From the IMG/VR virus record IMGVR_UViG_3300033565_000026, positions 1-64,000 of that record: 64,000 bases of DNA; one strand, given 5' to 3'. This document shows positions 10,918 through 38,853 of this stretch, piece by piece. The DNA is from a virus. The position numbers and the translations under genes were made by a program. The stretch's first letter is position 1. Each line of letters starts with the position of its first letter. The notes below the pieces were generated by a model that saw only the letters and a list, made by a program, of their open reading frames with translations, did not search any database and had not been told where the DNA came from.

Positions 10918-11343
10918 ATGGCAGTCCAGAAAAAAAAGAAGCAACAAAAAAAGGTCATAAACTATCAAGTATGGAACTGGACTCCAAAACGCAAACAAGC
11001 TGCAATAATGATGTCCACAGGCTTAAAATCACAAACAGAAATAGCCGCTGAGTTGAGTATTGCAGAAGAAACCGTGTCCAGGTGGAAACAGTATCCAGAT
11101 TTTATGAGAGAAGTTGAACGCCTCACATTCCAACAAGAAAACGCAACGAGAGCAGGAATTGTACGTCAAGCTCTTAAAGCTATGAATGTTAAAAAGAATC
11201 ATGTCGCTGAAGACAGAAGCACTTTTTTAGATTATTTAGAATTTATTGTCAAAATTATTCCTCCTGATATTAAAGAGGACAATGATAAACTGAAATCATT
11301 GACGGATGCCATTATGAGTAGTGCAAAAATGATAGGAAAATAA
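10918..11343 (+). CDS. terS: Terminase small subunit (HTH type)
   Basis: 141 aa with a basic N-terminus and the HTH segment TEIAAELSIAEETVSRWK. It lies immediately upstream of the large terminase (TAAATG junction). Confidence 0.6.
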   Translation: MAVQKKKKQQKKVINYQVWNWTPKRKQAAIMMSTGLKSQTEIAAELSIAEETVSRWKQYPDFMREVERLTFQQENATRAGIVRQALKAMNVKKNHVAEDRSTFLDYLEFIVKIIPPDIKEDNDKLKSLTDAIMSSAKMIGK

Positions 11344-12621
11344 ATGGTCTTCACTCCTGGCATTTTCTCCGAAAAACAAATTGACGTAATGGCTAACTGC
11401 ACAGCCACAATAAACTTTTTAGAAGGTGCTGTCCGATCAGGTAAAACCATTGCTTCTATTATTGCATTTGTTAATCTCGTTTTGAATGGTCCCTCTGGTA
11501 ATGTCCTCCTAATTGGAAAAACAGATACCACCCTTTATAGGAATATCCTGCAACCCATTGAGGAAATATATGGATCTACTAATTTTAAGTTTAGCAGGGG
11601 TTCCCGGGAAGGTATGATTTTTGGGAGAAAGTTTTACACTGCTGGAGCCAATGACGAGAGAGCATATACAAAAATTCAAGGGTTAACTCTCGCACTTGCT
11701 TATGGCGATGAAGTTGCAGCATGGCCTGAATCCTTCTTCCAGATGTTAATATCTCGATTATCTGAGCCAGGAGCACGCTTTATAGGGTCCTTGAATCCTG
11801 AAGGTCCTTATCATTGGCTTAAAACTAAATTCCTAGATAGAGAAAACGAACTATCTTTGAAATCCTGGCATTTTACTCTTGAAGATAACCAGAATTTAGA
11901 GCCGGCTTACGTTGAGAATTTGAAGAAATTTTACACGGGATTATTTTATCGAAGGTACATTTTAGGGGAATGGTGTTTAGCAGAGGGGACTGTATATGAT
12001 ATGTTCGATGAATCTCTACATGTAAAAGAGGTAACTAATGATATATGGAGAAATATAATAATCAAACATATATCTGTGGACTACGGGACCTCAAATCCAA
12101 CAGTTTTCCAACTGTGGGGCAACGATGGAAGAACACGTTACCTAAAAAAAGAATATTACTATGATTCAAGGGCAAAAGGAAGACAAAAAACTGATGCTGA
12201 GTACGCACAAGATTTAATTAATTTCATTGGTTCAGAAGATATTCAATCGGTAATTGTAGATCCATCGGCAGCCTCTTTTAAATTGGAATTATCTAAACGT
12301 GGGTTATATGTGATTGATGCTGATAATAACGTGTTAGACGGGATTAGAGATGTATCCAATGAACTCTCTCAGGGTAAGATATGGATTGACCCCTCTTGCA
12401 TCAATTTAATTCAAGAAATGGGCGCTTACATATGGGATACACGGGCAGGAGAAAGAGGGGAAGATAAACCAATGAAACAGTATGACCATTCAGAAGATGC
12501 CGCCCGTTATTATATACGTACAATTCCGGTGTACTATTACGAATCAGATTTCAATGAAAAAACAGATAATTATAATTCTCCTTTGGATTATCGGGGAGTT
12601 TATGAAAGCAGTTACTATTGA
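11344..12621 (+). CDS. terL: Terminase large subunit
   Basis: 425 aa with Walker A GAVRSGKT and Walker B-like LAYGDEVA. Nuclease-half acidic motifs are SVDYG and DHSEDAARYY. Size and layout match PBSX-type terminases. Confidence 0.85.
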   Translation: MVFTPGIFSEKQIDVMANCTATINFLEGAVRSGKTIASIIAFVNLVLNGPSGNVLLIGKTDTTLYRNILQPIEEIYGSTNFKFSRGSREGMIFGRKFYTAGANDERAYTKIQGLTLALAYGDEVAAWPESFFQMLISRLSEPGARFIGSLNPEGPYHWLKTKFLDRENELSLKSWHFTLEDNQNLEPAYVENLKKFYTGLFYRRYILGEWCLAEGTVYDMFDESLHVKEVTNDIWRNIIIKHISVDYGTSNPTVFQLWGNDGRTRYLKKEYYYDSRAKGRQKTDAEYAQDLINFIGSEDIQSVIVDPSAASFKLELSKRGLYVIDADNNVLDGIRDVSNELSQGKIWIDPSCINLIQEMGAYIWDTRAGERGEDKPMKQYDHSEDAARYYIRTIPVYYYESDFNEKTDNYNSPLDYRGVYESSYY

Positions 12622-13826: not shown

Positions 13827-14231
13827 ATGATAACTGCATATGATGTTTCTGCCGATCTTCTAATAAAAAACGTATCGCAACACTTGAAAATCGAAATTGA
13901 ACCGCCCACATGGGCATTTCATGTTAAAACAGGTCAACACAAAGAATTACAACCCGTTCAGCCGGATTGGTGGTATATTCGTTGTGCGTCAATCCTGAGA
14001 AAAATATATTTTCACGGTCCAATCGGAACGGAGAGGCTAAGATCTGCTTATGGTGGAAAAATAGATAACGGTGTAAAACCTGCACATCATGTTAAGGGCA
14101 GTGGGTCTATTGCTCGCAAGGCAGTCCAACAGCTTGAATCTGTTGGGTATCTTGAAAAATGTAGAGATGGTAGAAGAATTAGTGTGAAGGGTAGGAGTTT
14201 TTTAGATAGAATTGCTTTTGAGGCTGTTTAA
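13827..14231 (+). CDS. rps19e: Ribosomal protein eS19 (S19e)
   Basis: 134 aa. As I recall archaeal S19e, it is colinear with that family over the whole length: [55 protein letters not shown]. It has an SD (GAGAGGTAAT) and its own hairpin plus T-run. None of the usual ribosomal-operon neighbours are present. Confidence 0.85.
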
Positions 14232-16608: not shown

Positions 16609-16714
16609 TATTGAATTGCCAATGTAACTTTATTTTTTACATGATGTTTAAACATCTGTTCTTACATTGGCAATCAAAACCGGTAGTTATATATACGTTC
16701 ATTGGCAATTAATG
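16609..16714. repeat. ORB-like repeats upstream of orc1/cdc6 (3 copies)
   Basis: 16609-16628 is inverted; 16661-16678 and 16697-16714 are direct. All share the core ACATTGGCAAT of the consensus GTTACATTGGCAATTGAATA. Confidence 0.65.
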
Positions 16715-16740
16715 TATAATTAATAATTGCAGGTGAAAAC

Positions 16741-17970
16741 GTGGAATTATCAAGGAAAATAAGCCAATTCTATTCTAAACCCTCGGTGTTCAGAGACAAA
16801 GACGTATTAAAAAAAGGGCATCATCCACAGTCATTAGATGAAGTCCTTCACAGAGATGAAGTAATTAATAAATATGTAACTGTTTTACAGGAAGCTATCA
16901 AAGGGAAAGTTCCAGATAACCTGTTTATATATGGAACATTTGGAACTGGAAAAACGATGTTAGCGAGATTGATTACGTCTGAGATAGCTATGGCCGCAGA
17001 ACAGTTAGGAAATAGTGTAATTCCAATTTATATCTATTGCGAAACTGTGAGTGCTCCAAGCCCTCTAATGCAGTTTATTAATCAATCTATCATAGAAAAA
17101 CTACATGGAGTTAATAAACTTGTAGGAATATCGAAAGCCAAAAACTTTGATTATTTTTATGAATTGGTAGAAGAGGCAAAAGTGCCAATTATACTTATTT
17201 TTGATGAAATTGACAAACTCAAAGAACCTGACATTATAAATCAAATTTCGAGAATAAAGGAGTGTGGATTTACAAAACGCAATGTTTGTATTATCGGAAT
17301 AACCAACGACACTAATTTTTATAATAATCTTAATGGAAGGACAAAAAGCATAATAGGACAGAATGAATTATTTGTGCCTCCTTATGATGCGGATGAGCTT
17401 ATAGATATCTTGAATTTACGAGCTAAACAGGCATTTATAAACGACTCATTAGATGAAGTTGTAATTCCCCTATGTGCTGCTTTTGGTGCTCAAGAGAATG
17501 GGGATGCTAGGACAGCAATAGATCTACTCAGGACAGCCGGTGACCTCGCAGATCAAAGAGATAGTAGGATAGTAGAAGAATGTGACGTGAGAGCCGCAAA
17601 AGGCGGGATGGAATTAAACAGACAGCTTGAAGTTGTAAAAGGCTTGCCCACTCAAACAAAAAGCGTTCTTTTGGCATGTCTCTTAAAATATAAGAAAACT
17701 GGAAATGCATTAGAGACTAATGAGGTATATCCAATATACTCAAAAATATGCGAGATAACTTCATTAGATCCCGTTAAAACGAGGAGATTTAATGATTACA
17801 TAGGGGAATTAAACACACTAGGAATTATGTCCGTAAACAAGATCTCAAGAGGGAGGAAGAAAGGAGTTTACAACGCAATCAGACTGCTTGTAGAAACAGA
17901 TTCATTAGAAGAGATTATATTGCAGGATGATAGGTTTGAAGGATTTAGAAGAGGGAAAGATGAACTCTGA
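16741..17970 (+). CDS. cdc6: Orc1/Cdc6 replication initiator
   Basis: 409 aa with a GTG start after AGGTGAAAAC. It has Walker A GTFGTGKT, Walker B ILIFDEID and sensor-like GITND. The GDARTAIDLLR motif and a C-terminal winged-helix segment are typical of archaeal Orc1/Cdc6. Confidence 0.9.
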   Translation: MELSRKISQFYSKPSVFRDKDVLKKGHHPQSLDEVLHRDEVINKYVTVLQEAIKGKVPDNLFIYGTFGTGKTMLARLITSEIAMAAEQLGNSVIPIYIYCETVSAPSPLMQFINQSIIEKLHGVNKLVGISKAKNFDYFYELVEEAKVPIILIFDEIDKLKEPDIINQISRIKECGFTKRNVCIIGITNDTNFYNNLNGRTKSIIGQNELFVPPYDADELIDILNLRAKQAFINDSLDEVVIPLCAAFGAQENGDARTAIDLLRTAGDLADQRDSRIVEECDVRAAKGGMELNRQLEVVKGLPTQTKSVLLACLLKYKKTGNALETNEVYPIYSKICEITSLDPVKTRRFNDYIGELNTLGIMSVNKISRGRKKGVYNAIRLLVETDSLEEIILQDDRFEGFRRGKDEL

Positions 17971-17982
17971 GGGATATACATA

Positions 17983-18217
17983 TATTCAATTGCCAATGTA
18001 ACCAAGAAACTACTTGAGTGCTCTAAAAATAAAAAGCATTTAGCTTAATAATAAAAAAGCATTGTGACTTAATATGAAAGTTATACTATATATACTTAAC
18101 TATTACAAAATAAAATGTGTATTTCCAATAAATAAAATTTAATGTTACATTGGCAATTGAATAACTAAATAACTAGGGTTAATATGTTTATGGCTGTTAC
18201 ATTGGCAATTGAATAAC
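17983..18217. repeat. ORB-like repeats and AT-rich putative unwinding region downstream of orc1/cdc6
   Basis: An inverted copy lies at 17983-18002. Two identical direct copies, GTTACATTGGCAATTGAATAAC, lie at 18144-18165 and 18196-18217. About 140 bp of very AT-rich DNA separates the inverted and direct copies. Confidence 0.65.
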
Positions 18218-18421: not shown

Positions 18422-18527
18422 ACCCGTCATGTTCTCTCATTTTCATATTAATAAATTCGAATTAAATAATATGAAATTCTCTTGTTATTGTTTTTAAAAA
18501 GAGTAAATAAAAAAAGAGAAAAACGGA

Positions 18528-18914
18528 TTAATTAAAAACAGCTTTCTTTTCTTCCATTATTGCAATCTTCTGAGATAAATCAGATGATCCCTTATACTCT
18601 GCGATTACTACCTTATTGCAGGCTTCCAGATAAGCCTCAAAAGCTTCCTTCTGTTCTCCATAATTCCTGTTTGACCAATTCCCTTGAAGTCTGAGTTGAT
18701 AATTAATATCTTCGGCAGCTTCCTTTGATGGGTTCTCTATCAGATCCTGCATCATTGCATTAACTTCTGATACTCTAATATTAATTTCCTGAGTATAAGG
18801 ATCTATGGGCTCGTTGTGTATCTCAGAAACCGTATATCCTCCAGTTGCTCCAATTAGCATGAGTGCAACAACTGTATAAATCTCCCTCTGGAATCTCTCA
18901 AATATATAATTCAT
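18528..18914 (-). CDS. Membrane-anchored protein (last gene of the VirB4 cluster)
   Basis: 128 aa, preceded by GAGGAGTG, with a single N-terminal hydrophobic helix (VVALMLIGATGGY). Confidence 0.55.
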   Translation of the reverse strand: MNYIFERFQREIYTVVALMLIGATGGYTVSEIHNEPIDPYTQEINIRVSEVNAMMQDLIENPSKEAAEDINYQLRLQGNWSNRNYGEQKEAFEAYLEACNKVVIAEYKGSSDLSQKIAIMEEKKAVFN

Positions 18915-18917
18915 AAT

Positions 18918-19139
18918 TCACTCCTCAATAAAAACCCTTATCTGTTTCCCTTCTGTTCCAACTGGAAACCTAATTGATACATACCTTGATTCTGGAATTA
19001 TTATTGGTTCCCCTTCTCTTTCTCCCTGGGTTCTTGTGTACTCCCTCCATTTTGAGCGAAAAAGGAGATAAGCCTCACCAAGTCCCTGAATAATATTTAA
19101 TTCTTTTTTATTCTCAGATGATAAATTTTTATAAGACAT
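18918..19139 (-). CDS. Hypothetical protein
   Basis: 73 aa ORF lying 3 nt upstream of the next gene. Confidence 0.5.
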   Translation of the reverse strand: MSYKNLSSENKKELNIIQGLGEAYLLFRSKWREYTRTQGEREGEPIIIPESRYVSIRFPVGTEGKQIRVFIEE

Positions 19140-19276
19140 GAAACCTCAACAATATTTTATAAAGTGTACTTTCTATTTATACTTTGTTTCCACGAAACTA
19201 TGTGTACGTTGTCGAATTTGGTGGTTTCAACCTACCACATTTGACAGGTACATGTAGTAACCAGAAAAACGGAGGA

Positions 19277-21880
19277 TTAATAAACCTCCATTTGATCTGC
19301 AACCGTTTCAAACCGATCTGAATTTACGGTTTCACGGTTTTGTAATTCATCTCTAATGAGTTCTAATTTACGAAGGAGTTTACCCCCCTGTGGAACCACA
19401 TAACAAGCAGCCCTAGACTTTAACATCTCGGTACATGTTGCACCTGCTCCGGTGAAAATAATATTCTTATAACCGGCATCCTCTGCACGGTCTTTCTTTT
19501 CATCGAAGTCTAATGTTCCATGTGTGTCTTGCCCTTCAAATTCCAGGCATCCAGAGTTATCAGGATCAATTAAGTTTCCATTCAGGCCTACTTCTCCCCA
19601 TGTAATATCGGCTAAATCATTGTGGTGGATCTGGAGGTTAGGGAAACAGCCCCACTGTTTCATTTTTCCGTATATAGCACATACAGCGCAGTAATGTTTC
19701 CAGCCCTCAACGCCTATTAAGTCCTGCTTTTTCTTCCCGTTCTTCGTTGTTCCCTCTACTTTCTTCACCTTCGAGGACTTCACCCATGCACTAATAGAAC
19801 CCGAACCGAAAGGATCAGTCGGATTATAATTTGCATATGCAGAAAGGTCTGCTTTACTAAAGTTTTCTACCCAGTAATCTATAAAGAATTCCTCGGTTTC
19901 TACGAAATCACGGAGAGTTTCTTCAATGATTAAACCGCTTTGAGTTGACGCTTTTTTAACGGTCATTTTGTTCTTTCCTAAGAGGGCATCTTCTACCATA
20001 TCCTCTAAAACTACATCCATATTTATTGCATAAGGATGTTTTAAGAAAAGACATATGCCCCGCCCTTCCTCCAGCAGCCTCTCCCTATGTTCTTCCTTGA
20101 GGCTGAACACTTTATTAAACATATCAATTACAGAGTCCTTTAAGTTGCAGAGCAGGAATATGTTTGAACAGTTTGCTTTGATGAAATTAAGAGTATCAAT
20201 TCCGATCCCTTCGGGATCCTGTGTTGCAAAGATTGTAGTAATGAACGCACTCCTTGATTCTCGGAACATCTTTTCAATAAAAGGCTTTAGATTGTCTATT
20301 TTAAGGAGTTTAGCGCCTTCATCGAAAAATACATCTGTCCTTCTCTGTTCTACGTCCTCGGAGGAAAAGAACCGAGTGTTAATTATGCCCATCATAAGCA
20401 CGCTAAAGGCGTTCTGGAGGTTCAAAGATAGAGCAGATATATCTAATATAAGAAGGTCGTTATCAAGCTCTGGCGCGTTGTGGTTGTCTATCCAGTTAAG
20501 AGCGCATCCCTCAGTAGCTTCTATTGTGTCATATAAGAGAGCATTTAATGTAGGGTTAAATTTTGCAGTATTCAGGCCATCAATATAAGAATACCATTCT
20601 CCGAAGGAAGGCCATTCATCAGGATCAGCCCACTTATCAAGGTTTATTGCTCTTCCTTTCTTATCAACAAGTTCATGTTTTCGGTAAAGGTCCGCGAGAG
20701 TTTTTATAAACATTCCTTTTTTACGGCCTTTGAATGAGAGTCCAATCCATCCAGCCATAAAGCCTTTCAGGGTTTCATAGTGGTCTAATAGAGCTTTATC
20801 GTATGAATCCTGAGACGTACCCATCGTTTTAGGGTCATAAAATACCTGAAATGGATTAAAAGCATATTCAGGCATTCTAAGATGTTTCCCTTCAAACACA
20901 TTACAGAAGTTCTTATAATCAGTCCCTCCGCTTTTTTCATCTTTTGGCTGGAGGATAATAACCCTATGTCCTTTTGCCAAAGCTCTTGCCGCCCAAGTAC
21001 ATTCAAAAACCGTTTTACCGCTTCCGGTTTTCCCCATTATAAAGCTATGTCCCGCATCCTCTAAATTAAAATCCACTTTTACGGGTTTTCCAGTATCATC
21101 AATTCCAAGAATTATTCCGTCTTCAGGATATTGAGGATTAATAGCTCTGAGGGGCATCATTTTTGAAACTGTTTTCCCTGCAGTTGGTTGCAGTACATCA
21201 GGATCTATAAAGTTCGTTGGAAGGATGGATTTTATAACTCTTAATTGTCCATGCCTGGGGATTTCATATCTTATACCGCACTCTTCAAGAGTTCCTATGA
21301 TAGTATCAATAAGGGAATCAACATCTTTTTGAGTTTTCCCAAAAACCGCAGCGCATAACCCATAATTATAATAGTGATCTCTTCCATGAAATACGTTAGC
21401 TGTTGCCTTCTGTAATTCCTGGCCGTTCAGGCTGTTATACTGAGAGTTGATAGTCTGCTGTTCCCCGTTCTTCTGTTGCTCTTTTGACTGTTCAGTCTTT
21501 TCAATGGACTTCCCTAACATCTCAGCTTCTACGAGTGGATTGAGAGGAACCATTATATGCCCATAAATTATAGCAGCGTTTTCAGTTGCCGATATTTTAA
21601 TTAATTCGTCAACTGCTTTATCTGAAAAATCTTCATCATACCCCTTTCTTATATCCTGTCTCTTCGTTGTTTTCCCTATAATGAGAGCTTGCCCCCACAT
21701 CTTATTTACTTTTACATACCATCCATCCTTCGTGGCTTCGATGTCAGCAGGACACGCTAAAAATGAAAGGGTTTGAGTTCTCGCGGTCTTCCGGTCTAAC
21801 TGCTCTTTCTCCATCTGTTTTATTTCTCTCTCAACCTTCCAGCATTTCAATTTGTAATAGTTATTTAAAAAGAAATTCAC
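19277..21880 (-). CDS. VirB4/TrbE-like secretion ATPase with a C-terminal nuclease-like extension
   Basis: 867 aa. An N-terminal domain of about 270 aa precedes Walker A FIMGKTGSGKT, followed by VFFDEGAKLL and TTIFATQDP. The C-terminal 200 aa or so (EGWKHY..DLADITW..CLEFEGQ) shows a weak E..D..ExE/Q PD-(D/E)XK-like pattern. Membrane-protein genes are co-oriented upstream. Confidence 0.6.
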   Translation of the reverse strand: MNFFLNNYYKLKCWKVEREIKQMEKEQLDRKTARTQTLSFLACPADIEATKDGWYVKVNKMWGQALIIGKTTKRQDIRKGYDEDFSDKAVDELIKISATENAAIIYGHIMVPLNPLVEAEMLGKSIEKTEQSKEQQKNGEQQTINSQYNSLNGQELQKATANVFHGRDHYYNYGLCAAVFGKTQKDVDSLIDTIIGTLEECGIRYEIPRHGQLRVIKSILPTNFIDPDVLQPTAGKTVSKMMPLRAINPQYPEDGIILGIDDTGKPVKVDFNLEDAGHSFIMGKTGSGKTVFECTWAARALAKGHRVIILQPKDEKSGGTDYKNFCNVFEGKHLRMPEYAFNPFQVFYDPKTMGTSQDSYDKALLDHYETLKGFMAGWIGLSFKGRKKGMFIKTLADLYRKHELVDKKGRAINLDKWADPDEWPSFGEWYSYIDGLNTAKFNPTLNALLYDTIEATEGCALNWIDNHNAPELDNDLLILDISALSLNLQNAFSVLMMGIINTRFFSSEDVEQRRTDVFFDEGAKLLKIDNLKPFIEKMFRESRSAFITTIFATQDPEGIGIDTLNFIKANCSNIFLLCNLKDSVIDMFNKVFSLKEEHRERLLEEGRGICLFLKHPYAINMDVVLEDMVEDALLGKNKMTVKKASTQSGLIIEETLRDFVETEEFFIDYWVENFSKADLSAYANYNPTDPFGSGSISAWVKSSKVKKVEGTTKNGKKKQDLIGVEGWKHYCAVCAIYGKMKQWGCFPNLQIHHNDLADITWGEVGLNGNLIDPDNSGCLEFEGQDTHGTLDFDEKKDRAEDAGYKNIIFTGAGATCTEMLKSRAACYVVPQGGKLLRKLELIRDELQNRETVNSDRFETVADQMEVY

Positions 21881-22750
21881 TTAAACCACCCCATATATTT
21901 TTTTACCTGTTAACATACCCTGATAAATATCAATCATATCCTGATGCTCTTTTACTATAACGGTTTTAACTCCTCTTTTGCCTAATAACTTAAAATATCT
22001 GTTAACTACTCTATCCATTTCCTTCTGAGCTTTCCCCTTAAAAGCAGTATAAGGAAGCCCGATATAAATTAAAGTGGTTCTGTCTACCATTCCGGTTTTT
22101 TGGGAAAACTTCTTTTTCATACTGAGGAGTTCCGCCTTTCTTACAGGTGTTAATTTTGGCTGTTTTAGAAGCTCGTCAATGTCATTAAGAATGAATCTTG
22201 GGTCAATCCCTGTCATCATAATTGTTTTTTGATAACAGCCTTTAGGTAAAGCCCGAAATGCCCTTCTGAAGTTCTCGTTCATTGTATCCCTATCTATTTC
22301 AGGGGGGGATACTGCAATAGCTGTAAATCCAAAGTTTCCGTAGTATTCTCTTGTATTAGGACACGCAAACTCACTTAATCCGGTTGCTTCGTCAATTTCT
22401 TTCCAGGGGATATGATCTAATACCTGTTTATCGGTTGCTTTTTCACTGAATTTACTAAGGGTTTCATATCCTCGCTTCTCTCTTCTGTGAAACCTGAACT
22501 TTCTAAGGTTATGAGCAAGGGTTTCTTCATCCCTTGCAAATATCCCGTATGTTGCAACCGTCCCACATAATACTAAGGTGCTCGGTATCCATAACGGGTG
22601 AGGATATGAAAACAAAGAGAACGAGGCGGAGCCAACCCCTAGAATAATCGCTCCACCTATAGCGGTTATGCGTTCCCATGAATAGCCATTGGTAAATGGA
22701 TCTTTGACTGGCGATATAATTTGAGCTTGAAGCGAAACGTCTTTTGTCAT
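21881..22750 (-). CDS. Two-TM membrane protein with a cytoplasmic domain (VirB3-like position)
   Basis: 289 aa with an N-terminal hydrophobic hairpin (AIGGAIILGVGSASFSLF / STLVLCGTVATYGIFA). Its stop abuts the VirB4-like start. Confidence 0.45.
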   Translation of the reverse strand: MTKDVSLQAQIISPVKDPFTNGYSWERITAIGGAIILGVGSASFSLFSYPHPLWIPSTLVLCGTVATYGIFARDEETLAHNLRKFRFHRREKRGYETLSKFSEKATDKQVLDHIPWKEIDEATGLSEFACPNTREYYGNFGFTAIAVSPPEIDRDTMNENFRRAFRALPKGCYQKTIMMTGIDPRFILNDIDELLKQPKLTPVRKAELLSMKKKFSQKTGMVDRTTLIYIGLPYTAFKGKAQKEMDRVVNRYFKLLGKRGVKTVIVKEHQDMIDIYQGMLTGKKIYGVV

Positions 22751-22754
22751 CTTA

Positions 22755-23843
22755 TTACCTCGAAATTTTTATTACAATTCTATTTATCAATATTTTAGGG
22801 ACTTTATATGCAATAATAAGAATAAGAAAATCTGCTGCAACTGCTGCTATTATTCCAGGCAACACATAAGCCCAATTATCTTTTGAATTCCCTAACTGAA
22901 CACCAAACGATACAAAATAAAGTGTTATTATATCCATAAATACGAGTAAAATAAAGTAAAAATTAACAAATCCCCATGTTTTAATTGCCAATTTAAGTGA
23001 TATAAAAATAGCTTGCAATGCAAGAATCCCGCATAATATAAATGTCAACGATACAATAAAATAAATTCCATATTCCCCAATCAGTTTTTGAAAATTGTTA
23101 AAATACCACGCAATTCTTGTAATTACATAAGTGGGCATAGAATCAGAAGATGTGTTGATAGAGTCTACCATCGCAGTAGTCATCCCTAGAACCAACACAT
23201 TTCTGATTTTTACAATTCCTTTAATAAAATAATATTGAACAGCGGGACCGGCTAATATGCCAACCCATATTGTATACAATGCCTTAAAATCAAAATAAGA
23301 TTCTTCTCCCGAAAACGCATCTTGAATCTTCCCGATTAACTGAGGTGTAGTGTGTTGCCCTACAAAAACCCAATAAGCTAAACATATAAGAATTACAGCA
23401 CAAAGATAATATGTTCTACCCGTTTTAGCAAGACAGTCTCTTATGAAAGGTGGCTCAAACACATCTAGTTCTTTAGAATATAAAGAATATTGTAATTGCC
23501 TAGAACCCGTTATAGTTTCTTCCACACCAGCAGAAGCAAGCTTAAAACCTCCTTCCTGAAATTCATCAGCTATTGAATAGGGAAGCTCCATTAATGCATT
23601 AAGAATCATGGCTTCCCCTGCTTTTGTGTTTGAATCATCTTCCTTTTTTGGCGTTTCTTTTGGTTCTTCTTTGTCCTGGCTCTTATCCGATGAATCAATA
23701 TCATCCGGTATGTGAGCCTGTTTTTCTTTTGGGATCACATTACCGCTTTTGTCTTTGATTACAGGACTATGAGTTTCTAATGCATCCGCACTAAAAGGAA
23801 GAAGAAGGAGGATGAATATTACTAACAGGTTCGTAAACTTCAT
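22755..23843 (-). CDS. Polytopic membrane protein with a signal peptide (VirB6-like position)
   Basis: 362 aa. It has an N-terminal signal-like helix, an acidic/Lys-rich spacer, and then at least 5 hydrophobic helices. Confidence 0.45.
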   Translation of the reverse strand: MKFTNLLVIFILLLLPFSADALETHSPVIKDKSGNVIPKEKQAHIPDDIDSSDKSQDKEEPKETPKKEDDSNTKAGEAMILNALMELPYSIADEFQEGGFKLASAGVEETITGSRQLQYSLYSKELDVFEPPFIRDCLAKTGRTYYLCAVILICLAYWVFVGQHTTPQLIGKIQDAFSGEESYFDFKALYTIWVGILAGPAVQYYFIKGIVKIRNVLVLGMTTAMVDSINTSSDSMPTYVITRIAWYFNNFQKLIGEYGIYFIVSLTFILCGILALQAIFISLKLAIKTWGFVNFYFILLVFMDIITLYFVSFGVQLGNSKDNWAYVLPGIIAAVAADFLILIIAYKVPKILINRIVIKISR

Positions 23844-23852
23844 GTTTCCCCC

Positions 23853-24347
23853 TTAAAATACGCTAGTTGTTCCTAAATATTTCATAAGAGCTAATGCTAG
23901 AAGGAACCCACAGAATCCAAGAAATACAAAGCCCATCCAGTTTCTACCCTTCAACATGGTTTCCCATTTGCCCCAAATACTCCCCCACCCTATTCTCCCG
24001 TTGTTTACTGCGAATGATATCAGAGTAATTATTACAGATATCCCGATAGCACAGCCAACAACCAACAGAATTGATTTCTCGGCAGGTGGAATACTCATAA
24101 GGTAGTTTACGCCAGTAACCGGAGCCATTAGCAGTTTATTGAATCCGTTTGAATCTGTATTTAATTCATTAGTTTCTACCTCTTCATCAATATTTTTTGA
24201 AGATCCTGTTATTTCAGAATCCCTGCTTTCAACTACATTTCCATCCTTATCAAGAATTACAGGTTTGTTGTCTCCGTCTGCTGCCAGTGAAGGCACAACC
24301 ATTGAGCAAATCAGTATTAACCCGATTAAAATTGGTATTGTTTTCAT
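23853..24347 (-). CDS. Small secreted/membrane protein with two C-terminal helices (pilin-like layout)
   Basis: 164 aa. A signal peptide is followed by two hydrophobic helices separated by a short loop, the layout of VirB2/TrbC pilins. This is similarity of layout only. Confidence 0.3.
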   Translation of the reverse strand: MKTIPILIGLILICSMVVPSLAADGDNKPVILDKDGNVVESRDSEITGSSKNIDEEVETNELNTDSNGFNKLLMAPVTGVNYLMSIPPAEKSILLVVGCAIGISVIITLISFAVNNGRIGWGSIWGKWETMLKGRNWMGFVFLGFCGFLLALALMKYLGTTSVF

Positions 24348-24441
24348 ATATACACCTTGTAAAAATATACTTTCTATATATACAAAGTGTACTTACTATT
24401 AAAATTTATTGGTCAATTTTGAAAGTACAAAAAAAAGAGAA

Positions 24442-26256
24442 TTAGAAAGTAAATCTCAAAACATACAAACAGTATATAAAACAGATAAGTAAAATAACGG
24501 CAGCGTATTTGATTATTGGCTTAAATAACCCCTTATGTGGTTCAATTACTTTAATATCCATCGTAGGTTTAAAGCTGCCTTCGGGAGTGTTGCAGGTTAT
24601 TTTTATTTCATCAGGATCTACAAGGCCATCTAAATGAAAAGAATCTCCTGAGTGATATATTTCCCCTTCCCACAATGAACAGTTTGTATATATTACCGAT
24701 CTTCCCTGTTTTTCTCCAATCATAAGAGTGTGGAGTCCATTTTCCCCCTCAACTGATACTTCAACGCTTGTAAGCCCGTTAGAAGGTATATTGATAAGCG
24801 TATAAGGGTTACTATAATTATATTGTTCAATCGTTCCGGTGGCCTCCAACTGGCTTGCATCAACTCCAGAAGGTAAGATTATAGTATCATTCTCCTCTGC
24901 CTGCTCTACGAAATCCATTTTAAAAATATCAAAGATATTATCAAATTCTGTTGCTGATTGATCGGCCTCTTCTATCTCCTTATCTGAGAGAGGTTCAAAC
25001 CCGCCTGGAACATCCATTTCTGACGGCACAACTTCAGGACAACTCCACTCTTTACCGTTCCATGACCAACCCGAAGGGGTGCTCTGCTCTTTTGGATTTA
25101 TAAATATATCAGAATCAGAGAGCTTGCAGCCGTAAACGTTCCCCCCTACGTTATTATAATAACAGTTTTGAGAGCTTTCAACCTCTTGTTTTGAGATTGT
25201 ATTCTCAACTCCGAACCCTCCCTTTCCGGTTAGTTGGCTCGGTTTCGCGTTAGTGAATATATTAGCTGTTAGTTCTGCATCTGCGTATGTAGCCCATCCA
25301 GAATTAACAGCAAAAAAAACAACTGAGCCTCGGTAACATGAATCAAAAACGTTATTTTCAATTTTTGTATTATCATAACCGGAAGCAATTATTCCCCCTA
25401 CCCATGAAATACGATTATCCCCGCAATTCATAAAGAGATTATGATGCAACCATAACTCTTCATTACCTGAAGCTTTTCCAACCAACCAAAGCCCAGGACA
25501 GCAGGAAGATAATATAACATTTCCACAGACTTCTATATCTTCCATTGTACCTGTGTCATGCTGTATCTGGATAGCTGGACCTGCATCTCTCGGACCTTCC
25601 CACGAAATGATATTATTATAGATTCTTGCATGATTAACGTCTAAGAGTCTACACGCTGAATTAACAAGAGTCTTGATATTGTTGTGATGTACTTTAATAC
25701 CTGAAGATCTGAGAGCGAAGAAAACGTCATGTCCTCCCATTTCTCCGGTATTATACGAGAATTCTATGTTTTTGCAGCCGGATAGTCTCAGCCCATCCCC
25801 TAAATTATCATTAAAAGCGCATTTCGTAACCTTAATATTCTCACAATTTATTAAATATATAAAAGTCCCTATCTGGTTTCCATACGCTTTTTTGCCGCTC
25901 TGCTCAGGATGATTCGGGTTTGAATATCGAAGTGCGTACTTCTGATGATCCTGATTCCCCTCAAATCTAATCCCTGATATATTAATATTCTTTTGAGTTT
26001 TACCTGAGATCATAGGGATATTTTGAGGGATGCCGCATTCATCAGCGAACTTAAAAATAGTGCCTTTCTGCCCGCGTAATTCAATATTAGAAGGAAGTTC
26101 AAAAGAATTACTTATAGAGTATGTTTTAGCTTCCAATTCTATTATTTTATTACCATCTCCGCATAAACGAACAATTTCTTTTTCATCTCCTGCAAGAGCA
26201 TGACCCGATAACAAACATAATACTAATATTATAATAAAAGATCTTCTTAAATGCAT
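24442..26256 (-). CDS. Secreted right-handed beta-helix protein with a C-terminal membrane anchor
   Basis: 604 aa with a signal peptide and a C-terminal hydrophobic helix (AAVILLICFIYCLYVL). It has repeated N-x-I/V..N/G beta-helix turns and GDGLRLSG..MGGHDVFF. It is clearly paralogous to 31943-33298. Confidence 0.65.
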   Translation of the reverse strand: MHLRRSFIIILVLCLLSGHALAGDEKEIVRLCGDGNKIIELEAKTYSISNSFELPSNIELRGQKGTIFKFADECGIPQNIPMISGKTQKNINISGIRFEGNQDHQKYALRYSNPNHPEQSGKKAYGNQIGTFIYLINCENIKVTKCAFNDNLGDGLRLSGCKNIEFSYNTGEMGGHDVFFALRSSGIKVHHNNIKTLVNSACRLLDVNHARIYNNIISWEGPRDAGPAIQIQHDTGTMEDIEVCGNVILSSCCPGLWLVGKASGNEELWLHHNLFMNCGDNRISWVGGIIASGYDNTKIENNVFDSCYRGSVVFFAVNSGWATYADAELTANIFTNAKPSQLTGKGGFGVENTISKQEVESSQNCYYNNVGGNVYGCKLSDSDIFINPKEQSTPSGWSWNGKEWSCPEVVPSEMDVPGGFEPLSDKEIEEADQSATEFDNIFDIFKMDFVEQAEENDTIILPSGVDASQLEATGTIEQYNYSNPYTLINIPSNGLTSVEVSVEGENGLHTLMIGEKQGRSVIYTNCSLWEGEIYHSGDSFHLDGLVDPDEIKITCNTPEGSFKPTMDIKVIEPHKGLFKPIIKYAAVILLICFIYCLYVLRFTF

Positions 26257-26329
26257 AAAATTAATATAGATGTTATGAGTAATAAAGTTTACTTATTATT
26301 TAAAGTAAGTAAACTTTTATGAGGTAATT

Positions 26330-29633: not shown

Positions 29634-30470
29634 TTAAGTCTTAATCACATTATTTTTTAAAATAGCTCCCTGGACACTTATTCCTGGAGACTTACACTTT
29701 TCAATTATATTCTCTTTTATGAGAACATTACTCATTTTTGTATTTAATCCAATTATTCCAGGATAAGGTAAGCCTCTAATCTTATTTCCTTCTATTGTAA
29801 TATCTTTTAAACTCCCTTGTAATTGTAATCCTGTATAACCTCCTCCTGAAGTTACACAAGAATTATAAGAGAACTCTCCTTTATCAACATTATAAAATCT
29901 ACATGAAGAGTTTGTTCTATTTATAAATACAGAATTATATACTGAGATATTAGAGCAATCATAACAATAAATACCGTCATGTCCACACTTATTTACTGTG
30001 ATTCCATCTATGAGAACATTAGAACAGTCATGGAGTAAAACAGCATCATTGCAGCCATTTTTAAAAGTGCAGTCCTCAATAGTTAATCCTGAAACACCTA
30101 TAAAATTACACATATTAAATTGAGATGTGCCTAATTTTACATCTGGATAATAATCTGCTTGACTTCCATCAATGGTAATCCCACTTAGCTTAATATCCTT
30201 TACAGATGCGTTTCTACTCATTAACATTGCTTTTTCTTCTAAGATTGAACATTTAGGATATCCCCATTTAGAAAGCCCTTTAACGAGCTTTAAAATAGCT
30301 CCACCTTGTAAAATAGTATGTGAAGGGAATAATAGAGAATCTTTAATAGAATATATCTGATTTTCTTCTAGCTCAACGACTCCGGCATGACTTAAAGCCT
30401 GGTTCAACTCCTTTGACGTAATGCCTTTGTATGTACGTTTTTTGCCATCATTACCGTGAGCTATTATCAT
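29634..30470 (-). CDS. Beta-helix protein without a signal peptide
   Basis: 278 aa with repeated turns (CNDAVLLHDCSNVLIDGITVNKCGHDGIYCYDCSNISVYNSVF) and no N-terminal hydrophobic segment. Confidence 0.6.
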   Translation of the reverse strand: MIIAHGNDGKKRTYKGITSKELNQALSHAGVVELEENQIYSIKDSLLFPSHTILQGGAILKLVKGLSKWGYPKCSILEEKAMLMSRNASVKDIKLSGITIDGSQADYYPDVKLGTSQFNMCNFIGVSGLTIEDCTFKNGCNDAVLLHDCSNVLIDGITVNKCGHDGIYCYDCSNISVYNSVFINRTNSSCRFYNVDKGEFSYNSCVTSGGGYTGLQLQGSLKDITIEGNKIRGLPYPGIIGLNTKMSNVLIKENIIEKCKSPGISVQGAILKNNVIKT

Positions 30471-31942: not shown

Positions 31943-33298
31943 TTACCTCCTGTAAATCTTATAATCGGTAGTTAGTGCCTTTGTTAGTTCTGGAAGATGT
32001 CTTTCGAAACAGGAAATTAATACTTTAGTTTCATTATCCATGGTATCAGTAAAACAGCCTAATCCATGGTATCTACATGGACTGTTATCTTGCAGGTGGT
32101 AATCTCCGTTTCCTTTGTACCATGGATCAATATTATATTCGCTCTGAACAGTCACAGCATAATTATTGTTAGTATTACCATGGTAACAATTTTCAGAGCA
32201 TACCACAGTATTTCTATTGCCTGTTAGATTGGCGATTGCTGAACCTGAAGCAGTTCCTTTATAGTTACTTTCTTTCGTGTTAGTTACTATATTTCTTGTT
32301 ACCGTGGATTTTAAGCCTACCAATATACTTGATGTCTGCCAACCAGAAAACACAATTCCATAGCCCATACACTTATCAAAAGTATTATTTTCAATGTTAG
32401 CGTCAAATCCGTCAATACAGATTCCCCCCACATCATCAGTCTTGATGGCAGCAGGCTCAAGCCCACAATTCACGGAAAGGTTATTGTGAATGTTGATATT
32501 GTTCTGCCCCGCCGTACCTATAACCCACATTGCAGGACCAAACGAATCAGAAAGAGAATTCTCAAATACTTCAATATCCTGGCAATTCCAATTTTCAGCA
32601 GTATTTTGCACCTGAATAAGTGGGCCTGTATTTCCTTTCGTGCCTCTTAATTTACAGTTATGGATTCTTCCATTTATAACAGAACGAAAACGGACAGCCG
32701 CATTAACTTCAGTATCAATATCAAGCTCCGAGACATCTACATTTCTCGCACCTGCAACACATACAACGTCATGCCCTCCTCTACTTCCTGTTATTCGCTT
32801 GATAGTGATATCCTGCCCGCCCTCAATGCGGATTCCATCGCCTAGATTATTTCTAAAATCAATATTTTCAAAAGAGCATTTAGAAGAATTTGTATATTTT
32901 ACACTGCCTAACGAACCTAACATAAAAAAATTATGATAGCCTTGCCCCCATTGCTTGGATGCTTCTTTTCCTGAATGTCCGTTCCAGCCAGGTACGAACT
33001 TCTGATAGTCTCTATTCCCTTCAAATTTGAGATTTTTAAATGTTAACTTTTCAGCAGAAGAGGGATTCTTAGGAGCAATAAGAGGGATTTGCAGCCCAAA
33101 GGGTTTTAGAGGTGCATTCTCCATTAGGGTAAACTTACAGCCTTGCCCATCCCATTCAGTATTATTATAAACTCTAATAAGTGAATTGATCTCAATGTCT
33201 GGAGTGTCAAAAATGTATTTAGCTGGAGTATTTCCAATAGAATTTATTAATTTTTGTAGTTTTTGAGAATCATCTATAGTAACGGTTACCGTTTTCAT
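31943..33298 (-). CDS. Beta-helix protein without a signal peptide (paralog of 24442-26256)
   Basis: Start set at ATG 33298, which lies 6 nt after the GGAG of TCGGAGCTATAT. GDGIRIEG..RGGHDVVC..GPLIQVQ..IHNNL aligns with GDGLRLSG..MGGHDVFF..GPAIQIQ..LHHNL. Confidence 0.65.
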   Translation of the reverse strand: MKTVTVTIDDSQKLQKLINSIGNTPAKYIFDTPDIEINSLIRVYNNTEWDGQGCKFTLMENAPLKPFGLQIPLIAPKNPSSAEKLTFKNLKFEGNRDYQKFVPGWNGHSGKEASKQWGQGYHNFFMLGSLGSVKYTNSSKCSFENIDFRNNLGDGIRIEGGQDITIKRITGSRGGHDVVCVAGARNVDVSELDIDTEVNAAVRFRSVINGRIHNCKLRGTKGNTGPLIQVQNTAENWNCQDIEVFENSLSDSFGPAMWVIGTAGQNNINIHNNLSVNCGLEPAAIKTDDVGGICIDGFDANIENNTFDKCMGYGIVFSGWQTSSILVGLKSTVTRNIVTNTKESNYKGTASGSAIANLTGNRNTVVCSENCYHGNTNNNYAVTVQSEYNIDPWYKGNGDYHLQDNSPCRYHGLGCFTDTMDNETKVLISCFERHLPELTKALTTDYKIYRR

Positions 33299-33430
33299 AT
33301 ATAGCTCCGATTTGGGCAACCTTGCCGATAAAGAAAAAGTTGAATATAAAATATAAAGATAAAGATATATTTAGATATATCTAATTAAAAAAGTGAATAA
33401 GTTTTTATAAAAAAGAAGAATTTTAAAAGT

Positions 33431-38101: not shown

Positions 38102-38145
38102 ATGTTAAATTATAGAAGAACATATATAAAAAGTTTTAAAAAAGA

Positions 38146-38316: not shown

Positions 38317-38322
38317 ATAAAA

Positions 38323-38850: not shown

Positions 38851-38853
38851 AAA

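Follow-up and report, generated by a model that had tools for sequence, protein, structure and literature searches.

Organization of the locus

The window analysed here is a 64,000-nt stretch of viral DNA (positions 1 to 64,000 of IMG/VR record IMGVR_UViG_3300033565_000026). Between positions 18528 and 26256 it contains seven co-oriented open reading frames on the minus strand, with the boundaries, lengths, topologies and motifs given in an earlier sequence-only reading, which had proposed a VirB4-centred, type IV secretion system (T4SS)-like cluster in a tailed-virus context. The minimal spacing described there was also seen, the intergenic gaps from gene 1 to gene 7 being 94, 9, 4, 0, 137 and 3 nt. 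The features of the cluster, in order of transcription, are as follows:

26284-26317: perfect inverted repeat of 12 nt, AAAGTTTACTTA / TAAGTAAACTTT, located upstream of the operon in divergent, AT-rich intergenic DNA
24442-26256, minus strand: gene 1, beta-helix 'disaggregatase-related' protein, 604 aa
23853-24347, minus strand: gene 2, protein with a signal peptide and a two-helix hairpin, 164 aa
22755-23843, minus strand: gene 3, polytopic membrane protein, 362 aa
21881-22750, minus strand: gene 4, protein with an N-terminal transmembrane (TM) hairpin and a cytoplasmic domain, 289 aa
19277-21880, minus strand: gene 5, VirB4-family ATPase, 867 aa
19280-19948, minus strand: C-terminal domain of the ATPase, aa 645-867, alpha/beta fold (AlphaFold2 and Foldseek)
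18918-19139, minus strand: gene 6, small conserved module protein, 73 aa (homologues in the same position at 8 loci)
18528-18914, minus strand: gene 7, conserved module protein with a weakly hydrophobic N-terminus, 128 aa (homologues in the same position at 9 loci)
18490-18527, minus strand: likely operon terminator, oligo-T tracts directly 3' of the last gene, read from the sequence

The inverted repeat is a candidate operator or promoter element. No GC discontinuity is present at the cluster, and no flanking direct repeats of at least 24 nt were found around it. We give about an even chance that all seven genes belong to a single operon for a minimal T4SS-like envelope apparatus of archaeal type.

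Virus context and predicted replication origin

The surrounding genes are those of a tailed virus, and the relevant features are listed below:

10918-12621, plus strand: small and large terminase subunits (TerS, TerL), convergent with the module, an arrangement that recurs in related contigs
16609-18215: orc1 origin region, with four copies of a 20-nt repeat, GTTACATTGGCAATTGAATA, flanking orc1/cdc6
16741-17970, plus strand: orc1/cdc6 gene (Pfam Cdc6_lid 7e-25, Cdc6_C 3e-21)
35945-58400: virion module, syntenic with IMG/VR contig UViG_3300025000_000077
35945-38101, minus strand: head-morphogenesis-like and portal-like genes, assigned by size, position and synteny
within 35945-58400: scaffold-like gene, assigned by size, position and synteny
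41842-42807: HK97-type major capsid protein (MCP)
47934-48650: tail tube
49348-52017: tape measure
within 35945-58400: beta-helix tail proteins and tail terminator

PHROG and Pfam searches identified TerS (PHROG, 2.7e-7), TerL (Pfam, 3e-10), the HK97-type MCP (PHROG, 1.2e-5; the capsid protein of a Methanobacteriales virus was also matched) and the tail genes (tail terminator, tail tube and tape measure), bearing out the tailed-virus context of the sequence-only reading. The absence from the window of a VirD4-like coupling ATPase and a relaxase was likewise upheld, neither family being found when about 70 open reading frames of the window were compared with Pfam. Precomputed Pfam hits for three related loci also contained no VirD4 or relaxase.

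The four matches to GTTACATTGGCAATTGAATA compare with 0.04 expected, and an inverted pair of copies brackets an AT-rich stretch (18003-18143). The region from 16609 to 18215, some 300 bp from the end of the operon, is therefore predicted to be an ORB-like, Orc1-dependent origin of replication. Going beyond the earlier reading, we find that the Orc1 replication origin is linked to the module, Orc1 also accompanying it at three other loci (L013, L016 and L038). With an Orc1-type origin, these viruses would thus be virus-plasmid-like elements. The host of this tailed-virus lineage of about 70-75 kb is probably Methanosarcina, a methane-producing archaeon.

The central ATPase

The 867-aa protein begins with a VirB4-like domain (aa 1 to about 250), continues with a P-loop domain and ends in a C-terminal domain specific to the family; it carries the motifs GKTGSGKT (Walker A, aa 283-290), FFDEG (Walker B, aa 518-522) and ATQDP (aa 552-556). 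Its matches in NCBIfam were VirB4_plasma (6.9e-25), conju_CD1110 (1.2e-17), TraC-F (5.8e-14) and VirB4_CagE (3.1e-11), all with scores far below the curated cut-offs of these families; the two best VirB4/TraC models span aa 41-617. For Pfam AAA_10, the protein scored above the model's cut-off. VirB4 was the sole match in a single-sequence search of the PDB, and the ATPase profile matched VirB4 (4ag5) at 2e-20, compared with 2e-3 for a HerA-like protein, 0.015 for FtsK and 0.08 for TrwB. By hhalign, the probability was 96.9% against a bacterial CD1110-family VirB4, N-terminal domain included, and 98.7% against a haloarchaeal plasmid ATPase. Judged from these sequence comparisons, the central ATPase belongs to the VirB4 family. 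A grouping with HerA, FtsK or packaging ATPases had been named beforehand as the result that would speak against this assignment; these types, including terminase, were rejected, since the best profile, PDB and hhalign matches were all to VirB4.

The C-terminal domain (about 220 residues) was modelled confidently by AlphaFold2, with a pLDDT of 87.7 and a pTM of 0.84. Foldseek returned no match below 1e-3 for this model. Among the sub-significant matches, the top PDB entries were MUS81, PspGI, DdmD, FokI, NucS and Hjc, and the named BFVD matches were mostly Mrr-like, restriction endonuclease, VRR-NUC and resolvase proteins, with a best E-value for a nuclease assignment of 0.046-0.067. Residues W670, H729, D758, E780 and G832 are invariant, and remain so down to 19% identity. 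The modelled domain thus resembles restriction-endonuclease-like (PD-(D/E)XK) nucleases, a consistent but sub-significant likeness. The weak PD-(D/E)XK pattern noted earlier is matched by fold hits that are consistently nuclease-like, but these fall below significance and the canonical (D/E)xK lysine is missing from its place, the motif being E-F-E, or E-Y-A in distant members.

Membrane partners

The 164-aa protein starts with a signal peptide that looks cleavable, followed by an acidic linker and, at the C-terminus, a hydrophobic hairpin with a basic loop, the two TM helices lying at 92-110 and 137-155 by hydropathy. In the family alignment the hairpin is conserved and an A-x-A site is seen, and no match was found among PDB sequences. 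By analogy only, this layout resembles that of a VirB2/TedC-like pilin. The 362-aa protein has a signal peptide and about five TM helices (hydropathy), with some 100 aa lying outside the cell, and its family has 71 representatives among 1.84 billion proteins. None of 62 members matched Pfam TrbL/VirB6. Its AlphaFold model was poor (pLDDT 59), and in the Foldseek search TrwI/VirB6 (7o3v_F) first appeared at rank 38 with an E-value of 2.7. By layout, it is a candidate VirB6/CedA/TedA-like channel. The 164-aa and 362-aa proteins have a common N-terminus, comprising the signal peptide and the mature N-terminus (hhalign 95%).

The stop codon of the 289-aa gene abuts the ATPase start, the VirB3/PrgI position. 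Of the two TM helices ascribed to this protein, the one at 28-46 is clear, while the second (about 54-72) is weaker and was read by eye. The remaining 210 or so residues form a cytoplasmic domain that is conserved, and 31 homologues were found. The protein had no match in the PDB, and hhalign of its family against a PrgI protein gave a probability of 0.2%. The proposed correspondence of the three proteins to VirB2, VirB6 and VirB3 extends to layout and gene order; for homology, profile searches, AlphaFold with Foldseek, and hhalign against PrgI gave nothing significant.

The wall enzyme

The 604-aa protein matched Pfam Disaggr_assoc (1e-27) and Beta_helix (5e-10), and is a secreted enzyme of the Methanosarcina 'disaggregatase' type with a signal peptide and a C-terminal TM anchor (aa 581-599, hydropathy). 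Across module loci it is conserved only at aa 420-604. Over residues 1-436, its identity with the product of the first module gene in a Methanosarcina sp. metagenome-assembled genome (MAG) is 68.6%, and the N-terminal domains of gene-1 proteins elsewhere best match a tail protein of the window (52021-56052). The sequences thus indicate that loci can exchange the N-terminal catalytic domain (about aa 40-390), with aa 420-604, including the anchor, being module-specific. The VirB1-like hydrolase of the earlier reading stands as a wall-polymer-degrading beta-helix protein; it is a functional analogue, but not a homologue, of the VirB1/PrgK wall hydrolase.

Conservation of the module

The cluster is more than a chance arrangement: at more than 15 independent metagenomic loci the seven genes occur in the same order, with ATPase identities of 44-95%, and a shorter but recognisable version recurs at 23-33% ATPase identity. 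In at least six other viral contigs, very divergent modules (ATPase identity 23-32%) adjoin terminase, portal-like, Mu-F or tail genes. The synteny of TerS-TerL with the module is retained in L039, where TerL is 76% and the ATPase 32% identical, and also in L041/L028 and L038. The viral genome that holds L028/L041 encodes a capsid protein 69% and a portal-like protein 41% identical to those of the window. In L037, the genes immediately before the module encode TerL, a portal-like protein of 585 aa and Phage_Mu_F. In L033, a contig of a Methanosarcina sp. MAG, a 578-aa portal-like protein with Phage_Mu_F lies upstream of the module and genes that are scaffold- and capsid-like by size on its other side; among the head genes of these last two loci, Pfam supports TerL and Phage_Mu_F only, and portal, scaffold and capsid were assigned by size and position. 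A related module in L003/L004 adjoins a plasmid-type 1211-aa primase, on contigs of 11-16 kb in which no viral gene was seen. Between related viruses, the ATPase is far more divergent (23-32% identity) than TerL (63-76%). The window's capsid protein, S19e and the 362-aa protein are all recorded on a single 72,696-bp contig, similar in size to related viral contigs of 75 kb and 73.5 kb. The module is thus a conserved, stable accessory component of the tailed-virus lineage, which the earlier reading had not proposed.

Comparison with known systems

In the Ced (Sulfolobales/Aeropyrum) and Ted (Thermoproteales) systems, CedB/TedB correspond to VirB4, CedA/TedA to VirB6 and CedA1/TedC to VirB2; import of DNA has been demonstrated for Ced and suggested for Ted (Beltran et al. 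2023, PMC9905601). The module similarly would combine an archaeal VirB4 with VirB6-like and VirB2-like proteins, the partners being likened by layout, and has no VirD4 or relaxase. Its pilin-like protein resembles TedC in having a cleavable signal peptide, and the N-terminal region common to the pilin-like and polytopic proteins parallels that reported for CedA and CedA1. In contrast to Ced and Ted, which are encoded by host chromosomes, the module is encoded by a tailed virus, its ATPase has an extra nuclease-like C-terminal domain, and it adds the beta-helix wall enzyme, the 289-aa protein and two small proteins. Furthermore, the ATPase fits bacterial FATA-type VirB4 (6.9e-25, aa 113-617) far better than CedB (8.8e-7, aa 171-299).

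The best profile matches of the ATPase, N-terminal domain included, were to MPF_FATA conjugation systems of monoderm bacteria (pCF10, Tn916, ICEBs1, CD1110 family) and mycoplasma integrative and conjugative elements (ICEs). MPF_FATA systems also have a polytopic VirB6-like protein and a cell-wall hydrolase, and in a Cohnella plasmid locus the small hairpin protein PrgI lies directly upstream of VirB4 and overlaps it, recalling the position of the 289-aa gene. However, the Cohnella locus has VirD4, a relaxase and MobC, all three absent from the module; the module hydrolase is a polysaccharide-active beta-helix protein, not a peptidoglycan hydrolase; and the 289-aa family was negative against PrgI.

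Archaeal conjugative plasmids and ICEs (Sulfolobus pNOB8/pING, thaumarchaeal ICEs, haloarchaeal megaplasmids encoding 'DUF87' VirB4-like ATPases) share with the module a VirB4-like ATPase, membrane partners and the lack of a recognisable relaxase, as well as Orc1/Cdc6 on the same element; a Haloplanus plasmid locus has both the ATPase and Orc1, and its ATPase is the haloarchaeal one matched at 98.7% by hhalign. The composition of thaumarchaeal ICEs has been described (PMC6563490). In most of these elements VirB4 is paired with a VirD4/TraG ATPase (PMC6563490), whereas the module has a single ATPase and its element encodes a complete-looking tailed-virion module that they lack. Virion genes are combined with a plasmid-type replicon or conjugation functions in bacterial phage-plasmids (P1-like), which transfer as virions (PMC12282955), in phage-ICE tandems and in the NitEve-E7 provirus within an ICE. 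Unlike the tandems and NitEve-E6/E7, each an accretion of two elements that can be separated, the T4SS-like operon stays at a syntenic place in the viral genome across deep divergence.

Possible functions

A conserved operon around a conjugation-type VirB4 motor suggests direct cell-to-cell movement of DNA by these viruses, for which no description was found in the literature searched for archaeal viruses. The chances appear evenly balanced that the operon provides the virus with a minimal T4SS-like apparatus by which DNA would pass between neighbouring cells in contact. The tethered enzyme would locally digest a methanochondroitin-like wall polymer, the polytopic and hairpin proteins would form a membrane channel and docking site, and a VirB4 hexamer would drive extraction of the pilin-like subunit and translocation of the substrate. 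The nuclease-like domain of the ATPase might process DNA at the channel, replacing relaxase and coupling protein. Such an apparatus could export the viral episome, which would then have a second way, needing no virions, to spread within cell aggregates, or could import DNA as Ced and Ted may do. To our knowledge, T4SSs without VirD4 serve DNA import or protein secretion and not conjugation. The searches that returned no partner homology, VirD4 or relaxase, and the sub-significant nuclease call, also count against DNA transfer.

Egress or lysis is an unlikely alternative, in which the enzyme and the membrane proteins would breach the Methanosarcina envelope, with the ATPase powering enzyme assembly or secretion. 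The module lies among head-like genes in L033 and L037, a typical late-gene place; if those assignments are right, the operon might be expressed late in the lytic cycle, as would suit egress more than conjugation. Gene 1 encodes a hydrolase of wall polymers, with a catalytic domain matching tail enzymes of the virus itself, and the literature searched describes no tailed Methanosarcina virus and therefore no lysis system for one. Yet we know of no lysis system that uses a VirB4 ATPase, the nuclease-like domain would have no obvious role, and the window's module is a separate operon at least 10 kb from the head genes, beside the replication origin. The module next to a plasmid-type primase, where no viral gene was seen, also argues against egress. 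A T4SS-like machine that does not move DNA, such as a pilus or adhesin, or a secretion device altering the host surface or aggregation (lysogenic conversion), seems distinctly unlikely. The lack of VirD4 and relaxase would suit it, as would the pilin-like subunit and tethered surface enzyme, and one report (PMC12426801) describes a type IV pili-mediated mutualism of two temperate archaeal viruses and their host. Against it, both archaeal VirB4/VirB6/VirB2 systems that have been characterised, Ced and Ted, have a link to DNA transfer, and the conserved nuclease-like domain of the motor, with invariant H/D/E, points to a nucleic-acid substrate.

Membrane defence or superinfection exclusion, in which an FtsK/HerA-superfamily ATPase and a nuclease destroy incoming foreign DNA, is very unlikely. 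Defence systems commonly combine an ATPase with a nuclease, defence genes are frequent in temperate elements, and DdmD is among the fold matches of the C-terminal domain. The defence model mad8 of PADLOC matched the ATPase at 1.8e-16 but covers only its P-loop core (aa 255-614), while VirB4 models score higher and include the N-terminal domain; the other six proteins match no PADLOC model, and a secreted wall-degrading enzyme and a pilin-like protein would be unexpected. The fixed syntenic place of the module across deep divergence is also at odds with defence genes of temperate elements, which tend to turn over faster. The chance insertion of an unrelated conjugative element or plasmid into a provirus, which would be uninformative on the virus, is most improbable. 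Nested archaeal mobile elements are known (NitEve-E7 inside NitEve-E6, PMC6563490), a related module does adjoin a plasmid-type primase, and the greater divergence of the ATPase than of TerL could reflect module exchange. However, this reading is already contradicted by the conserved synteny, three further contigs retaining TerS-TerL with the module and another two having the module next to head genes, and the lack of flanking direct repeats of at least 24 nt and of a GC discontinuity, as well as the single 72,696-bp contig carrying capsid protein, S19e and the 362-aa protein, argues the same way.

The operon and its ATPase

The sequence-only reading had placed at 18528-26256 seven minus-strand genes laid out like a minimal type IV secretion system (T4SS). 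All seven ORFs were found with the positions and lengths it claimed, encoding in order of transcription proteins of 604, 164, 362, 289, 867, 73 and 128 aa, with intergenic gaps of 94, 9, 4, 0, 137 and 3 nt and with oligo-T tracts 3' of the last gene. A hydropathy scan reproduced the topologies proposed for the 604-, 164- and 362-aa proteins; for the 289-aa protein, proposed to have two transmembrane (TM) helices, an N-terminal hairpin was recovered with just its first helix above the hydropathy threshold. A perfect 12-nt inverted repeat enclosing TTTAAATA lies at 26284-26317, in the AT-rich divergent intergenic region 5' of the operon; this region separates the operon from the gene of a secreted acidic 199-aa protein, which also adjoins the module in the related viral locus L039.

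The 867-aa ATPase carries GKTGSGKT (Walker A) at aa 283-290, FFDEG (Walker B) at 518-522 and a third motif at 552-556, with GKT, D520 and E521 invariant across 18 homologues. Its best four NCBIfam matches were all VirB4/TraC models:

aa 113-617, Mbov_0397-type VirB4, 6.9e-25
aa 41-607, CD1110-type VirB4 (conju_CD1110), 1.2e-17
TraC-F, 5.8e-14
VirB4_CagE, 3.1e-11

Every NCBIfam match was far under its curated cut-off (e.g. 86.9 vs 590), and the archaeal CedB and CedD models (27.9 bits vs a cut-off of 700 and 23.1 vs 600, respectively) scored much lower than the VirB4/TraC models. Pfam AAA_10 reached 30.2 bits, above its cut-off of 27.5. When the PDB was searched with the single sequence, the sole match was the VirB4 C-terminal domain 4ag5; a profile of the 18 homologues again gave VirB4 4ag5 (2e-20), followed by HerA-like (2e-3), FtsK (0.015) and TrwB (0.08) entries. 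With hhalign, aa 41-581 aligned to residues 212-713 of an annotated CD1110-family VirB4 with 96.9% probability, and the ATPase matched a haloarchaeal megaplasmid ATPase with 98.7%. A VirB4-type N-terminal domain is present before the ATPase domain, the conju_CD1110 and hhalign alignments both starting at aa 41. VirB4 thus led the profile, PDB and hhalign comparisons, so that the proposed VirB4-type ATPase was upheld, and the grouping with HerA, FtsK or packaging ATPases that had been named beforehand as its refutation was not found. On profile scores the protein appears closer to VirB4 than to HerA, FtsK, VirD4/TrwB or the terminases, and we class it as a distant member of the VirB4 superfamily branch and not of any named subfamily.

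A weak PD-(D/E)XK pattern had also been noticed in the C-terminal domain of the ATPase (aa 645-867), and this stood in part. The AlphaFold2 model of the domain is confident (pLDDT 87.7, pTM 0.84) and has the secondary-structure order H83-99, E115-117, E133-138, H145-158, E162-167. The top Foldseek matches were mostly of the restriction-endonuclease-like fold, but with E values of at least 0.046, and no match below 1e-3 was obtained in two libraries. The top PDB fold matches were MUS81, PspGI, DdmD, FokI, NucS and Hjc, and the named viral ones were mostly Mrr-like, restriction endonuclease, VRR-NUC and resolvase proteins. W670, H729, D758, E780 and G832 show no variation even among sequences as low as 19% identity. 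The fold matches and the invariant D758 and E780 favour the pattern; the canonical lysine does not, the (D/E)xK position two residues after E780 being occupied by E or A, not K, while K795, whose conservation is not strict, sits on the next helix. Judged from the model, the domain is likely nuclease-like, of a predicted PD-(D/E)XK type.

Relatives of the module

The ATPase family is rare: a set of 5.8 billion proteins contained 17 clusters of it, and it is known from metagenomes only. Wherever a locus has enough flanking sequence, the seven genes keep their order, and divergent versions of the module also lie inside other tailed-virus contigs.

Contigs carrying divergent modules (identities to the window proteins)
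L026/L039, IMG/VR UViG_3300025010_001835: TerL 76% identical, ATPase 32%
L025/L028/L041, IMG/VR UViG_3300025000_000077, 75 kb: capsid 69%, portal-like protein 41%, TerL 63%, ATPase 24%
L038, ENA contig, 45 kb: Orc1, YopX, minor tail protein, module and convergent TerL; ATPase ~24%
L037, GCA_024280975.1, 60-kb contig: TerL, 585-aa protein, Phage_Mu_F, then directly the module; ATPase ~23%
L033, Methanosarcina sp. MAG contig, 89 kb: 578-aa protein and Phage_Mu_F upstream; ATPase ~24%
L040, IMG/VR UViG, 73.5 kb: ATPase 24-25%; counted as viral only through its IMG/VR listing, with no virion gene within the 13.9 kb examined

L026/L039 has the same TerS-TerL/module synteny as the window, with the same divergent neighbour gene, and in L028 the homologues of the 362- and 289-aa proteins were supported by hhalign (78% and 91%). 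Elsewhere the module stands beside a plasmid-type 1211-aa primase (the L003/L004 subgroup) or beside Orc1 (L013 and L016). Given these viral, primase-side and Orc1-side loci, the module is best read as an ancient, mobile and fast-evolving cassette common to Methanosarcina-associated elements, and by the same sequence comparisons it is a stable resident of the window's virus lineage.

Single-protein scans with the ATPase, run on IMG/VR and on GTDB genomes, found nothing, and neither did a first IMG/VR profile scan with patterns from the narrow family; it took TerL loci and a broader alignment to bring out the IMG/VR relatives. In GTDB, a profile scan picked up the module at two loci, each on a MAG contig that carries a bacterial label and is probably mis-binned, while a Halobacillus genome gave one match that was weak and partial. 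There was no ATPase relative in a collection of sequenced phages.

Wall enzyme and membrane partners

The 604-aa protein, in the VirB1 position, is a 'disaggregatase-related' beta-helix protein with a signal peptide and a C-terminal anchor. Conservation with the module extends over only its last ~190 residues, which include the anchor. Loci exchange the catalytic part: in the window it is 68.6% identical to the product of the module's first gene in a Methanosarcina sp. MAG, and at other loci it is most like the window's own 1343-aa tail protein. The supposed VirB1-like hydrolase is analogous to VirB1 in function but not homologous to it. Six beta-helix (NosD/disaggregatase-type) proteins are encoded in the window (24442-26256, 29634-30470, 31943-33319, 43346-45793, 52021-56052 and 57729-58400). 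Tail proteins and the module's tethered enzyme seem to swap the catalytic domain, both inside one element and from element to element, a pattern that fits adaptation to the Methanosarcina wall polymer.

For the VirB2, VirB6 and VirB3 positions (the 164-, 362- and 289-aa proteins), the expected order and topology were borne out and homology was not. Profile searches of the PDB with each of the three families gave noise only. In the 164-aa protein, a signal peptide is combined with two hydrophobic helices that a basic loop joins. The layout of the 362-aa protein, a signal peptide with ~5 TM helices, is VirB6-like; the protein's family numbers 71 representatives among 1.84 billion proteins, no TrbL/VirB6 Pfam domain was found in 62 distant members, and its AlphaFold model was poor (pLDDT 59), with TrwI/VirB6 at rank 38 in Foldseek (E 2.7). 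The 289-aa family failed VirB3/PrgI homology (hhalign probability 0.2% with a PrgI protein) and gave 0.3% with the VirB4 N-terminal domain; what it shares with VirB3/PrgI is just its TM hairpin and its place immediately next to VirB4. The 362-aa proteins form a newly defined family, and the 289-aa family is similarly uncharacterised.

The 164-aa (23853-24347) and 362-aa (22755-23843) proteins have a signal peptide and first mature residues in common (consensus VKIIDKDGN; hhalign 95%), which may be a shared export or processing signal. A similar 'AADGDN' N-terminus occurs on a small protein of the very distant L028 module, whose pilin-like protein matched the 164-aa family in hhalign within the signal-peptide region only.

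Viral genome and predicted origin

The tailed-virus context was confirmed by terminase, HK97-type capsid and tail genes, the Caudoviricetes set comprising TerL, TerS, capsid protein, tail terminator, tail tube and tape measure. The main landmarks are:

left end of the window, DUF3440/PAPS-reductase, ParB_N and PD-(D/E)XK genes
10.9-12.6 kb, TerS and TerL
35.9-38.1 kb, minus strand, inferred portal-like and head-morphogenesis-like genes
41842-42807, HK97-type capsid protein
up to 58.4 kb, tail terminator, tail tube, tape measure and beta-helix tail proteins
59155-59727, minus strand, short integrase-like gene
60181-60516, YopX

With TerL at 10.9-12.6 kb and head genes from 35.9 kb, the operon lies between the two. 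GC content does not set the cluster apart, and the capsid protein, the S19e homologue described below and the 362-aa protein are each recorded with one 72,696-bp JGI contig as their longest contig.

Directly 3' of the operon is an orc1/cdc6 gene, around which a 20-nt repeat, GTTACATTGGCAATTGAATA, occurs in four copies (0.04 expected by chance):

16609-16628, 17983-18002, 18144-18163 and 18196-18215, copies of GTTACATTGGCAATTGAATA

An inverted pair of copies brackets an AT-rich 140-bp stretch. Together, orc1 and the repeats have the classic ORB/DUE layout of a predicted origin, which, on a tailed virus, suggests maintenance as a plasmid-like episome.

The claimed absence of a coupling ATPase and a relaxase was sustained: neither VirD4/TraG nor any relaxase family was matched among the ~70 window ORFs scanned or in the precomputed Pfam matches of L033, L037 and L038. 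No oriT could be defined, the sole nearby repeats being the ORB-like copies around orc1, and Rfam gave no match within the window.

Possible function

Two points are established: the operon encodes a VirB4-family motor with membrane and secreted partners in a T4SS-like layout, and the linkage of this module to tailed-virus genomes and to an Orc1 origin is conserved. In composition the closest systems are Ced/Ted, archaeal DNA-transfer systems with VirB4-like, VirB6-like and VirB2-like components and without VirD4 or relaxase (PMC9905601), which the module matches by layout. Because of this equal composition DNA is the most likely substrate, and we hold contact-dependent DNA transfer, whether export or import, to be an about even prospect. 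Unlike Ced/Ted, which are chromosomal and host-encoded, the module sits inside a tailed-virus genome, and its ATPase misses the CedB and CedD cut-offs. FATA-type VirB4 and haloarchaeal plasmid ATPases are closest in ATPase sequence, and phage-plasmids and phage-ICE composites are closest in concept (PMC12282955; PMC6563490). Archaeal conjugative plasmids and ICEs have no recognisable relaxase reported (PMC9905601; PMC6563490). Given the negative tests for VirD4, relaxase and VirB3 homology, the module falls outside every named VirB4 subfamily, outside Ced/Ted and outside the complete conjugative systems.

In bacterial conjugation, DNA processing and coupling are done by the relaxase and VirD4. 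The assembly encoded here would work as a minimal T4SS, wall digestion, channel, pilin and motor being supplied by the operon proteins and DNA processing possibly by the domain fused to the ATPase; this VirB4-nuclease fusion is a testable candidate for relaxase-free DNA processing in archaeal conjugation. A more specific proposal, tentative and on balance doubtful, makes these dual-mode elements, namely temperate tailed viruses that have a plasmid-type Orc1 replicon and would also spread from cell to cell in Methanosarcina aggregates by their own relaxase-free T4SS, the VirB4-fused nuclease domain doing both processing and coupling. If true, the virus would be a conjugative one and would offer a concrete candidate for the step at which DNA is processed in archaeal conjugation.

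Other readings are less probable. The module is placed among head genes in L033 and L037, as might be expected of a part in egress or another late function, a role we consider unlikely; a pilus or secretion apparatus with a substrate other than DNA is about as unlikely. A defence role is improbable: the PADLOC models matched in the ATPase core only, where window positions 19949-21130, the P-loop part alone, hit mad8 of the MADS system (1.8e-16), which we read as a probable cross-hit within the FtsK/HerA/VirB4 superfamily. That the module entered this virus by a chance insertion is hardly credible, as no att-like direct repeats of at least 24 nt were found around the cluster, and accidental insertion was rejected on the recurrence of divergent modules in other tailed-virus contigs.

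Conjugation machinery is taken to define one class of mobile element and the virion a separate one, a boundary that is blurred in Archaea by a virus lineage with a stably retained VirB4-centred apparatus. Full-text literature searches returned no VirB4 or T4SS module described in archaeal tailed viruses or in Methanosarcina viruses, and literature searches no described tailed Methanosarcina virus. An apparatus of this kind may account for virus spread in methanogens that are aggregated and wall-embedded, a group important for methane production, and could yield a gene-transfer tool for Methanosarcina.

Other features of the genome

Between TerL and orc1, at 13827-14231 (plus strand), lies a gene for a 134-aa homologue of the archaeal/eukaryotic ribosomal protein S19e (PF01090, 7.7e-53), possibly a ribosomal protein encoded by the virus. 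Among 15 billion proteins it forms a singleton at 90% identity, and the related contigs L026-L032 lack it.

At 208-4751 (plus strand), two paralogous DUF3440/PAPS-reductase proteins are encoded with a ParB_N protein and a PD-(D/E)XK nuclease, a phage-typical cluster that may have a role in DNA modification. The short (190-aa) tyrosine-recombinase catalytic-domain protein at 59155-59727 (minus strand) may represent an integrase that has been truncated or split; att repeats were not identified.

A 2.1-kb segment (38102-40196) containing a tRNA-Gly(TCC) at 39571-39650 (minus strand) and several small ORFs separates the portal-like from the scaffold-like gene, where the related virus L025 has ~200 bp; the segment reflects either a tRNA borne by the virus or a small insertion. 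The gene at 61357-61773 (minus strand) encodes a secreted, cysteine-rich Lamin-tail-domain (LTD) protein with 84% identity to the product of a gene at 508-852 near the module of contig L001; at the DNA level, the LTD gene aside, the window and L001 have the module alone in common.
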